This document shows, piece by piece, positions 11,117-12,284 of a stretch of DNA of 64,000 nt; positions within the stretch are counted from its first letter, which is position 1; every line of letters begins with the position of its first letter. The notes beneath the pieces are model-generated. The model was not told the DNA's origin. It worked only from the letters and a program-made list of their open reading frames with translations, and searched no databases. The translations under genes were made by a program, and so were the position numbers. Location of the stretch: assembly GCF_055900595.2 (NCBI RefSeq), contig NZ_CM148325.1; one strand, given 5' to 3'.

Positions 11117-11141
11117 ATTCTGCAGACACTGTCTGCAGAAT
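11117..11141. repeat. Perfect 11-bp-arm palindrome (attctgcagac-act-gtctgcagaat), fourth member of the yhcG palindrome family
   Basis: Read directly: perfect inverted repeat with 3-nt spacer between the yhcH stop and the yhcG stop; core cagacNNNgtctg shared with three palindromes inside yhcG. Confidence 0.75.
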
Positions 11142-11156
11142 TCGAAACCGCTGAAA

Positions 11157-12284
11157 TTAACGGCGTCTATAGCCTTCCTCTAGCACCGCCTGTGTTCGAA
11201 CGAGTTCATCCGCGAGTCGTTTTTCATCAGGTAGTTGCATCTTATATTCGCTCGCCAGAACGGTGTTAGGCAAACCAGCCAGTGCATAATGCGCTTCGCC
11301 GGCTCCTTTCTCTGCACAGAGAACCAGACCGATGGGCGGATTTTCATCCGGTAGTGTCCAGTGCTCTTTGGCGTAGTTGAGATACATATTCATCTGTCCG
11401 GCATCGCTATAGCTGAATTTGCCCACTTTTAGATCGACGATTAGCAGGCAGCGTAAACGGCGGTGGAAAAACAGCAGATCGACACGAAACCAGTTGTCAT
11501 CAATGCGTAACCTTCGCTGCCGACCAACAAAGGCAAAATCATCCCCAAGTTCCAGCATGAAATCCATCAGGTGGTTGATCAGCGCCTCCTCAAAATCGGA
11601 TTCTGAGTATTCATCTTTCAATTCCAAAAATTCGAGCACAAAGGGATCGCGTATCGCCTGTTGCGGAAGAATATGCGTCTCGGCAGGGGCGTGTTGTTGC
11701 AGCATGGCTGATTTGTCATATGACAGTAGTGTCCGCTCATAAAATTGGGTCGCAATTTGCCGCTCTAGCTGGCGGACAGACCAACCACAGCGGAGCGCCT
11801 CTTTTTCATAAAAGCTGCGGGCGTCAGCGTTTTTAACGGAAAGTAGACGGACGTAGGTGGACCAGGGCAGTGGGAAGGATTTGGCAGACAGCGTCTGCCA
11901 AATCTTTGCCGATGGGAATTCTGCAGACGGTGTCTGCGGAATTCCCAATGGTGTTAATTCGCCAGACACTGTCTGGCGAATTTCAACATGTTGAAAAAAG
12001 AGGTAAAAAAGCCTCATTTGGCGTAAGTTTTTTGCAGAGAACCCACGCTTATACCTTAGACTTAAATCCTTTGATAGTCGCTTGATTAGCTGCGCACCAT
12101 ACGCAGCTCTGGCCTCACCACCTTGTTCAAATTCGACAATCCGTCGGCCAATTTCCCAGTATGTCGCGGTCATCAGCGCGTTAACGCTACGTACCGTTTC
12201 CGTTCGGGCGCTATCGACCAGATGAATAATGCCGTCGTGGATTTGCTGGTAGCCTGCTGTGGTTCCTTCTGAGAGCGATTCCAT
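11157..12284 (-). CDS. yhcG: YhcG-family protein (DUF1016, predicted PD-(D/E)XK nuclease fold)
   Basis: 375-aa ORF; size and position (after yhcH, opposite strand) match E. coli yhcG; N-terminal region contains a repeated I-x-Q-T-x-S-[GA]-[EK] peptide encoded by DNA palindromes. Family assignment is from recall. Confidence 0.75.
   Translation of the reverse strand: MESLSEGTTAGYQQIHDGIIHLVDSARTETVRSVNALMTATYWEIGRRIVEFEQGGEARAAYGAQLIKRLSKDLSLRYKRGFSAKNLRQMRLFYLFFQHVEIRQTVSGELTPLGIPQTPSAEFPSAKIWQTLSAKSFPLPWSTYVRLLSVKNADARSFYEKEALRCGWSVRQLERQIATQFYERTLLSYDKSAMLQQHAPAETHILPQQAIRDPFVLEFLELKDEYSESDFEEALINHLMDFMLELGDDFAFVGRQRRLRIDDNWFRVDLLFFHRRLRCLLIVDLKVGKFSYSDAGQMNMYLNYAKEHWTLPDENPPIGLVLCAEKGAGEAHYALAGLPNTVLASEYKMQLPDEKRLADELVRTQAVLEEGYRRR
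11878..11982. repeat. Three tandem ~27-bp palindromes at 39-bp periodicity inside the yhcG N-terminal coding region
   Basis: gatttggcagac-agc-gtctgccaaatc (11878..11904), gaattctgcagac-ggt-gtctgcggaattc (11916..11944, one arm mismatch), aattcgccagac-act-gtctggcgaatt (11956..11982); centres 39 bp apart, all in frame. Confidence 0.85.

Follow-up and report, generated by a model that had tools for sequence, protein, structure and literature searches.

Why would a nuclease gene carry palindromes within its own reading frame, and is their symmetry a property of the DNA or incidental to a repeated peptide? This question is raised by yhcG (11157–12284, minus strand, 375 aa) in a 64,000-nt stretch of DNA from assembly GCF_055900595.2, contig NZ_CM148325.1. 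We refer to the whole stretch as the window, and coordinates are positions in it unless a locus is named. Along the window, nanT, nanE, nanK and nanQ (yhcH) lie on the plus strand and yhcG, gltD and gltB on the minus strand. It contains four palindromes of 25–27 bp with 11–12-bp arms and a 3-nt spacer; three of them lie in the yhcG coding region and one outside it. We found that the palindrome belongs to the YhcG/DUF1016 gene itself at the nucleotide level, with a constraint on base pairing that goes beyond the needs of the protein.

Palindromes in yhcG and its homologues

The three internal copies are read on the minus strand and form an in-frame tandem array of 39-bp (13-codon) units (11875–11991), whose copy number is polymorphic. 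Unit C (11956–11982) is the first in the protein, encodes IRQTVSGE (I102–E109) and has perfect 12-bp arms (12/12 paired). Unit B (11917–11943) is the second and encodes IPQTPSAE (I115–E122); its 12-bp arms contain one mismatch, which is A.C on the mRNA strand and G.T on the plus strand, and extend to 16 bp. In unit A (11878–11904, or 11879–11903 when delimited more narrowly), the third, which encodes IWQTLSAK (I128–K135), 12/12 positions are paired, the arms can be extended to 15 bp, and the change from E to K has its counterpart, W (TGG), on the other arm. The peptides span YhcG residues 102–135 and are followed by FPLPWSTY. The extragenic copy, palindrome D (11117–11141, no strand assigned; attctgcagac-ACT-gtctgcagaat, 11/11 paired), lies in the 59-bp gap between the convergent stops of nanQ/yhcH and yhcG, 20 bp past the former and 16 bp past the latter. 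The start-to-start distances along D, A, B and C are 762, 39 and 39 bp. A preliminary description of this DNA had placed four palindromes here, three of them in frame at 39-bp spacing, and had noted a thrice-repeated peptide before an LPWSTY-like motif; both statements held when positions, pairing and distances were re-measured.

The core CAGACNNNGTCTG occurs four times in the window versus 0.02 expected, a count reached by 0 of 100 shuffles, and the 27-mer pattern with up to three mismatches recovers the same four sites and no further ones in the window. The consensus can be read directly as ATT-NNN-CAGAC-NNN-GTCTG-NNN-AAT, with AT-rich ends and 11–12-bp arms. Folded as single-stranded DNA, each unit reaches −11 to −16 kcal/mol (z = −4.9 to −7.7) and the three-unit stretch −42.7 kcal/mol (z = −9.7). 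Tandem Repeats Finder reported nothing for the array; because the units are only ~72–76% identical to each other, this reflects a limit of the tool and is not counter-evidence, and a different repeat search (find_repeats) did recover the 39-bp register.

Homologous genes carry a palindrome at the same place. Our first set of homologues comprised 80 loci from species-representative genomes with 53–93% protein identity, spanning Enterobacteriaceae, Burkholderiales, Rhodocyclales, Acidobacteria, Cyanobacteria, Planctomycetes, Desulfobacterota and others. Nearly all of these encode one to four copies of I-x-Q-T-x-S-[GA]-[EKQ] ahead of FPLPWS[AH]Y, and there they have at least one near-perfect 27-bp palindrome of the form [ga]att-NNN-cagac-NNN-gtctg-NNN-aat[tc]. 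For distant homologues (30–42% identity; plasmids and viral or proviral contigs), an alignment places the palindrome at the same nine codons with unrelated arm sequences, for instance aattctcgtatcACTgatacgagaatt (ILVSLIREL), caattgtcgtgacGCTgtcacgacaattg, aattgcgaacgcgCtgcgttcgcaatt, gcaattctctcaccACTggtgagagaattgc (Hymenobacter) and gcaattggccaacaACCtgttggccaattgc (Rhodococcus, Actinomycetota). Overall, homologues at 30–90% identity come from Proteobacteria, Acidobacteria, Cyanobacteria, Actinobacteria, Bacteroidota, plasmids and prophages. The Trp of the L-P-W-S motif is invariant in 128 family sequences and anchors the position of the palindrome in homologues; in YhcG it is W141 (codon 11862–11864, minus strand). 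As a position control, we compared the best palindrome in the 60 codons before this Trp with equal-sized regions elsewhere in the same genes, and found at least 10 paired arm positions in 78% of the 126 target regions versus 2.4% of the 382 control regions. Both arms lie inside one open reading frame (ORF) in ~150 homologous genes, units A–C corresponding to yhcG codons 101–136. The conserved element is a palindrome with 11–15-bp arms and a 1–3-nt centre, located at the same nine codons (I-x7-[E/Q/K]-[L/F]) before an invariant L-x-W-x-H.

The number of units varies in the family as well. In one metagenomic representative of 459 aa (P0196), this position is occupied by six ~20-residue units in tandem, with the pattern I-x-Q-[PT]-V-[VF]-x-[EK]-S-K-D.... 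HMMER alignments to family members often break in two at query residue ~105–113, which is consistent with widespread length variation. In some genomes, a second adjacent DUF1016 gene or fragment has its own palindrome (L080 3536–3562, ILDAVRREL-SWTHF; L118 98–124, ISQTVSAEF-KLSWSHY).

The array might be a protein repeat only, in which the codons of a structural peptide repeat are conserved and the DNA symmetry is incidental, and the recurrence of the peptide I-x-Q-T-x-S-[GA]-[EKQ] in homologues fits such a view. To measure pairing, we chose 91 distinct units by the peptide I.QT.S alone, so that the variable arm positions were unused in the selection. The three variable pairs were Watson–Crick in 92, 89 and 87% of these units, versus 48, 35 and 33% with shuffled partners. 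Pairing is at background beyond the 12th–13th position and absent next to the centre, which gives a stem of 11–12 bp with a 3-nt spacer. In an alignment of 66 sequences, 106 cells had changed on both sides versus 44 ± 7 in shuffles (0/500), and sliding the partner by 1–3 columns left 22–46% of cells paired versus 90.8% in register. Even the conserved core has been replaced with compensation, as in ctttcaac/gttgaaag (ILSTPLKES) and tacgcgac/gtcgcgta (IYATLSRKS). The arms change together: sequence and encoded residues are replaced over time, and the symmetry is kept.

The same constraint can be seen in the codons and in the protein. Residue 2 covaries with residues 7–8 as reverse-complement codons predict (V/A-Q, W or S/A-K, C or F/G-K, R/G-E, P/A-E), which argues against a protein repeat. 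Among 18 loci with at least 60% GC, Ile is encoded by ATT in 24/27 cases within units versus 49/225 elsewhere, Ser by TCT in 25/32 versus 35/370, and Lys by AAA in 9/9 versus 55/213. Also against a mere peptide repeat, synonymous sites are fixed within the arms whereas variation is free at the third position of the Thr codon, a spacer base; the symmetry is also retained in non-coding copies; and the region is modelled as a low-confidence coil. The pairing, sliding and codon tests already contradict the protein repeat, to which we assign next to no probability. The encoded peptide looks instead like a passenger of a DNA element in a tolerant loop. That the symmetry exists at the DNA level and is not a peptide motif alone, as the preliminary description had argued, is thus borne out by the covariation of pairs and by codon choice against host bias.

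The nanQ–gltD locus of Escherichia

When one palindrome was compared by BLAST to 5,426 complete E. coli genomes, we observed a median of 3 places per genome and never more than 6, nearly all of them on the chromosome. K-12 has exactly five copies, namely D, A, B, C and a further copy E located 15 bp past the gltD stop, and all of them lie between nanQ and gltD. The idea of a DNA repeat family dispersed through the genome, for which a search for further copies had been proposed, therefore did not hold. D and E are satellite copies that occur only in Escherichia.

Within yhcG, the period is a constant 39 bp in frame, and the copy number differs among strains and relatives. The window and K-12 have three units and 375 aa, O157:H7 lacks exactly 78 bp (two units) and encodes 349 aa with one unit, and two or three different units occur in a further E. 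coli allele class; among homologues, the number reaches six in some. The number of 39-bp units is thus variable as in a variable-number tandem repeat, which had been put forward as a check. The E. coli triple array is a recent in-frame amplification of one ancestral 39-bp unit. Of the earlier suggestion that a small palindromic element had expanded in frame, the expansion stands, whereas the unit that expanded is an ancestral one fixed in the DUF1016/YhcG family.

Length polymorphism of yhcG is one of the six LSPA-6 typing loci for O157:H7 (PMC3514354, PMC8733641). These papers use yhcG as an amplicon-size marker and quote alleles of 394 and 392 bp, and neither mentions palindromes, a 39-bp unit or conservation beyond E. 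coli. The marker is the same locus, with the same lineage differences in amplicon length, and the variation in 39-bp units is the mechanism behind a length polymorphism that has long been used for O157:H7 typing.

Other strains show larger changes. In strains without yhcG, the nanQ–gltD spacer is 67 bp and consists of the left flank of D, one perfect palindrome and the right flank of E; this lone palindrome is identical to unit C. We considered whether such an empty site (L004) is ancestral and yhcG was inserted, which is less simple than a deletion between D and E of the K-12-type arrangement because the adjacency of gltD and yhcG is common to Citrobacter, Kluyvera and Superficieibacter. In E. 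coli B/BL21-type strains (726/5,426 genomes), the point where yhcG breaks off coincides exactly with the outer border of unit A, the third one, and ~470 bp of single-copy DNA (L086 3106–3576) takes the place of the C-terminal two-thirds of yhcG and of D. The segment contains a 101-aa ORF annotated as 'transposase' that matches no NCBIfam model. The idea of an insertion sequence that targets the hairpin was rejected, the segment being single-copy in the 726 genomes and without an NCBIfam match.

Divergence between two allele classes is limited to ~200 bp around the units, with 50–70% identity there versus 93–100% on either side. Palindrome D, whose conservation had been named as a further check, is kept in E. 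coli, E. whittamii and Escherichia sp., with three compensated arm variants (ctg/cag, ctc/gag and cgc/gcg). In each Escherichia genome, the arms of D match one internal unit, which indicates exchange between the copies. Phase variation by inversion of the segment from D to an internal unit was unsupported, with no inverted arrangement among the BLAST places sampled.

Two neighbouring observations concern gltD. Compared to K-12 (L005 4831–12040), the window (12285–12467) lacks the fimbrial block gltF-yhcA-yhcD-yhcE-yhcF, so that gltD abuts yhcG and no copy E is present; this abutment is probably ancestral because it is common to other enterobacterial genera. Furthermore, gltD has a 27-bp quasi-palindrome of its own (13494–13520, GAACGCTTTATCATTGATATAACGCTC), a second coding palindrome in an unrelated housekeeping gene, which is recognisable (10–14 paired positions) in Kluyvera, Citrobacter, Superficieibacter and E. 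whittamii.

Selection, RNA and DNA

A palindrome that is maintained by pairing need not have a function. It may be a mutational by-product, that is, a quasi-palindrome in a tolerant loop that is perfected by intrastrand template switching or arm conversion and duplicated by slippage, and the element would then be a neutral or selfish coding palindrome. In quasipalindrome template-switch mutagenesis, a process associated with Ripley 1982, the Lovett laboratory, and Monttinen and Loytynoja 2022, one event reportedly matches one arm to the other. The process resembles our case in its apparent compensatory substitutions and perfect stems, and it may supply paired changes here. Several observations are in line with a by-product: pairs are strictly Watson–Crick with no wobble preference, tandem copy number varies, the peptide lies in a low-confidence loop, and palindromes persist in truncated or frameshifted copies (L065, L086, L170, L118). 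In addition, a related DUF1016 subfamily of Pseudomonas plasmids and prophages has a second, GC-rich palindrome (tcgaggcggcgcgcTTgcgcgccgcctcga) with 14-bp arms near codon 25 (L094 414–443; L097–L103 ~1574–1603). The two nucleotides at its centre read TT at some loci and AA at others, as an inversion of the centre predicts, and this flip suggests that template-switch events probably occur.

A by-product would not, however, account for the fixed position of the palindrome relative to the reading frame and the protein motif in a family of ~25,000 clusters at 50% identity (25,233 at E <= 0.001) and many phyla, nor for codons chosen against a strong host GC bias, nor for a helix that ends sharply at 12 bp. 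Furthermore, extra units decay while one per gene stays near-perfect. In 60/62 multi-unit genes, the best unit, which is usually the first, keeps at least 10/11 pairs, whereas several genuine extra units have decayed to ~8/11 (e.g. L020, L022, L035); the loose unit definition used for this count also caught overlapping false units, so very low pair counts do not represent real units. Conversion alone thus does not preserve the units, and template switching, which is a process and not an element, leaves both the position-fixed retention and the decay of extra units unexplained. Fixed position, sharp helix end, codon bias and unit decay together speak for selection that keeps one or more hairpins intact in each gene, and we consider a functionless by-product unlikely.

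If a hairpin is selected, it could act in the mRNA. A hairpin in the yhcG transcript may control translation, stability or processing, or be bound by YhcG for autoregulation, and a control element built into the gene in this way would accompany a toxic nuclease to whatever host it enters. The element is indeed transcribed within the ORF, its hairpin is very stable and its pairing covaries, and D lies in the likely 3' untranslated region. A canonical copy is also found at the 5' end of the gene in three lineages. In Fusobacterium (L087), a perfect canonical copy precedes the ATG by 24 nt, next to the ribosome-binding site, and the gene's own internal motif is a different, shorter palindrome; the other two 5'-end copies are in L171 and L085 (codons 9–16).

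An mRNA helix is expected to tolerate G.U pairs, and we found no enrichment of G.T on the mRNA strand: the 171 mismatches in 146 distinct palindromes comprise 32 G.T, 49 A.C and 90 others, and G.T accounts for 0–3% at the variable pairs. This spectrum does not favour the mRNA hairpin affecting yhcG that the preliminary description had listed among possible roles. Copies also occur outside the yhcG transcript or ORF, namely E in K-12, the lone palindrome of yhcG-less strains, the Fusobacterium copy and a perfect palindrome in Burkholderia diffusa (L071 6488–6520), which stands free 1.4 kb from the gene, is of another subfamily's type and has no surrounding ORF; the first two lie outside any yhcG transcript. 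There is no U-tract after the hairpin and no Rfam family match: at a permissive E-value, Rfam returned only chance-level matches to generic hairpins (at most 22.7 bits versus gathering scores of 34–130). Likewise, a terminator and promoter scan of 10900–12600 flagged none of the four palindromes. The flanks of D read ...gaattcgaaacc and, on the other strand, ...gaatctttaaaacg, with no T-run; D is therefore not terminator-like, and a role as bidirectional terminator is unsupported. Altogether, an RNA role has a small probability in our view.

Alternatively, the duplex itself could be recognised, as a B-form operator for a dimeric DNA-binding protein that may be a regulator or the YhcG N-terminal domain. 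The two-fold symmetry, the conservation, within the main subfamily, of ATT/AAT as outer and CAGAC/GTCTG as inner blocks, and the copies at gene 5' ends would suit an operator. But the variable triplet differs between units of one gene (CGC, CCG and TGG in the window; TGG, CTC and GTG in L039), and each unit is self-complementary, so that one protein specificity cannot explain them. Across subfamilies, the whole arm sequence is replaced and the symmetry kept. A binding site for a dimeric protein, which had also been proposed, is thus disfavoured, and we regard a duplex operator as very improbable.

The YhcG nuclease and comparable systems

According to Pfam, YhcG consists of DUF1016_N (residues 19–184) and the PD-(D/E)XK nuclease domain YhcG_C (208–360). 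A sequence search of the PDB found no solved relative of YhcG. We used an AlphaFold2 model built from 128 diverse aligned sequences, with a mean predicted local distance difference test (pLDDT) score of 76.6. In this model, residues 97–114 are a coil between two helices, and block 101–110 has a pLDDT of 56 between blocks of 86 and 87. The modelled nuclease domain is nearest in fold to NucS (2vld, E = 4.5e-5) and EndoMS (5gke), and also to Can2; together with the Pfam assignment, this sets YhcG apart from replication initiators of the Rep/HUH type. NucS and EndoMS are dimeric enzymes whose nuclease substrates are mismatched or branched DNA. The fold agrees with an earlier profile link of the family to DUF91 and archaeal junction resolvases (PMC1189080). 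Deletion of yhcG has been reported to be synthetic-lethal with hypomorphic dnaB, dnaN and parE (PMC2672614).

YhcG also matches the PADLOC candidate defence family PDC-S02 (E = 9.3e-136, residues 9–370). In the accessible text of a preprint, a PDC-S02 representative is among eight candidates tested, of which four were protective, and PDC-S02 is not among the three that are named there. We found homologues often within type I restriction-modification operons or beside integrases on plasmids, and DUF1016 homologues are known to be common in a type I restriction-modification context (PMC9881135). In four sampled plasmid loci, the DUF1016 gene lies between type I restriction-modification subunit genes, with start and stop codons that overlap or nearly abut. 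On two IncP/IncHI-type plasmids (L091 and L094, 1–344 / 341–1408), the DUF1016 gene overlaps the stop of an upstream site-specific integrase gene by 4 bp. In the common K-12-type allele (a protein cluster of 4,131 members), Arg (AGG) replaces the invariant Trp, which the window allele keeps, and the first unit has a pair-breaking change from R to H. K-12 YhcG may thus be functionally impaired, which is relevant to any K-12 experiment.

The reading we favour, with a confidence somewhat short of an even chance, is that the selected entity is a DNA hairpin or cruciform in the tolerant loop, putatively acted on by the gene's own nuclease or at replication and serving as a recombination joint. Selection would then be for a DNA structure that needs perfect pairing, not for an mRNA helix or a duplex operator, and the element would be placed in a loop that tolerates mutation and separates the N-terminal from the nuclease module. 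As the palindrome is inside the nuclease ORF, site and enzyme are always inherited together. On this reading, the palindrome is most probably the site of action of the gene's own dimeric, NucS/EndoMS-like structure-specific nuclease, or of stalled replication, and such action would make it a recombination joint. A recombination joint would explain why units are gained and lost, why deletions and replacements end at palindromes, why D evolves in concert with an internal unit, and why N- and C-terminal modules are shuffled. The rearrangement junctions in E. coli (the 78-bp deletion, the BL21-type replacement and the empty site) fall at palindromes. In several pairs of homologues, protein identity jumps from ~50% to 85–95% at residues ~95–115, yielding N-/C-terminal mosaics. 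A more specific version, in which the palindrome is the putative cognate target of YhcG, as hairpin or cruciform, and gene and palindrome are a self-contained enzyme-plus-site module, is conceivable though on balance doubtful.

Several points weigh against a DNA structure acted on by YhcG. Some homologues have an intact nuclease motif and no clear palindrome, for instance the subfamily with FPIWNAVRTELSWTHY (L088, L124), and the K-12 allele still keeps its palindromes although it lacks the invariant Trp. The covariation counts ignore phylogeny. The contrast between G.T and A.C mismatches (p = 0.07) is not significant in itself, and coding limits the possible wobble pairs. At the DNA level, the switch in identity is at the palindrome in one pair of homologues and ~60–70 nt downstream of it in another; the mosaicism is only suggestive because a domain boundary is a favoured breakpoint anyway. 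Palindromes are generally prone to rearrangement, so junctions there prove no designed role, and 12-bp arms are near the lower limit for cruciform extrusion. Binding or cutting of the palindrome by YhcG and cruciform extrusion in vivo are proposals.

The combination of features seen here is not shared by the nearest described phenomena. The closest in arrangement are the origins of pT181, embedded with its cruciform IR-II in repC, and of phiX174, embedded in gene A; both are acted on, as has been proven, by HUH/Rep nickases that initiate rolling-circle replication. As in yhcG, a structure-forming inverted repeat lies in the ORF of a DNA-cleaving protein, so that recombination cannot separate enzyme and site. 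YhcG differs in being a PD-(D/E)XK, NucS/EndoMS-like protein, and its action on the palindrome is putative. Rickettsia palindromic elements, attributed to Ogata et al. 2000, are said to be mobile, roughly 100–150 bp long and present in many unrelated genes of one genus. They share palindromic DNA in frame within ORFs and the tolerance of an inserted peptide, whereas the yhcG element is not dispersed: all E. coli copies are at one locus, and it is inherited with one gene family. Other hairpins, namely integron attC, dif/Xer, and IS200/IS605 or REP-RAYT, were considered and rejected because their boxes, imperfect or bulged stems and element-end positions do not fit; cassette arrays and HUH transposases were not searched for in the loci.

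REP/BIME, ERIC and Box C elements are likewise short imperfect palindromes with extragenic copies between convergent genes, but they are dispersed in tens to hundreds of copies and have their own consensus. The copies described here number 1–6 per genome, lie between nanQ and gltD and are mostly coding (3/4 in the window), and we found no GC-rich ~35-bp consensus with a 5' tetranucleotide. The earlier statement that the palindromes match none of these E. coli repeat families is in line with this. Nematomorpha mitochondria have many coding palindromes of up to 284 bp across many genes (Mikhailov et al. 2019, PMC6649704). These are also perfect inverted repeats within protein-coding genes in which both arms are translated, and protein function and strict structure are both kept. 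In yhcG as well, the arms are translated in one ORF and their complementarity exceeds what the protein requires; the difference is that the mitochondrial repeats belong to one organelle lineage, whereas here a single short hairpin with 11–15-bp arms is found at one position of one enzyme family, kept in different bacterial phyla and on mobile elements, with compensatory turnover. PARCELs are amphipathic domains of 25 residues and occur for the most part in proteins that are targeted to membranes and have no known function (2010, PMC2996958). They share with our units in-frame tandem repeats of variable number, dyad-symmetric coding DNA and horizontal spread. Our unit has 13 residues, of which nine are palindromic, and no 25-residue amphipathic domain; it lies in a modelled coil loop of a cytoplasmic protein with DUF1016_N and PD-(D/E)XK domains, and one copy is ancestral and fixed. 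The literature we covered on DUF1016, YhcG, COG4804, PF06250, PF17761, PDC-S02 and coding palindromes, with most subscription journals outside this coverage, does not describe the element, and the family-wide depth of its conservation seems to be unreported.

For bacterial genes, the palindrome of yhcG is a clean case of dual coding, in which a DNA structure dictates the residues that are allowed in a protein loop. This calls for caution with protein alignments, as residue covariation can stem from DNA pairing and not from protein contacts. If the palindrome is a target of its own enzyme, a defence-associated and horizontally mobile family could trigger breaks at itself, and such breaks could serve to recombine and swap its N- and C-terminal modules, to spread the gene in a homing-like way, or to cleave it in a controlled manner during infection. 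The uncharacterised nucleases of YhcG/DUF1016 form a very large family that is frequent in type I restriction-modification operons and defence islands as well as on plasmids and in prophages, and the compensatorily preserved element gives a first concrete, testable handle on how these nucleases are controlled or what they recognise.

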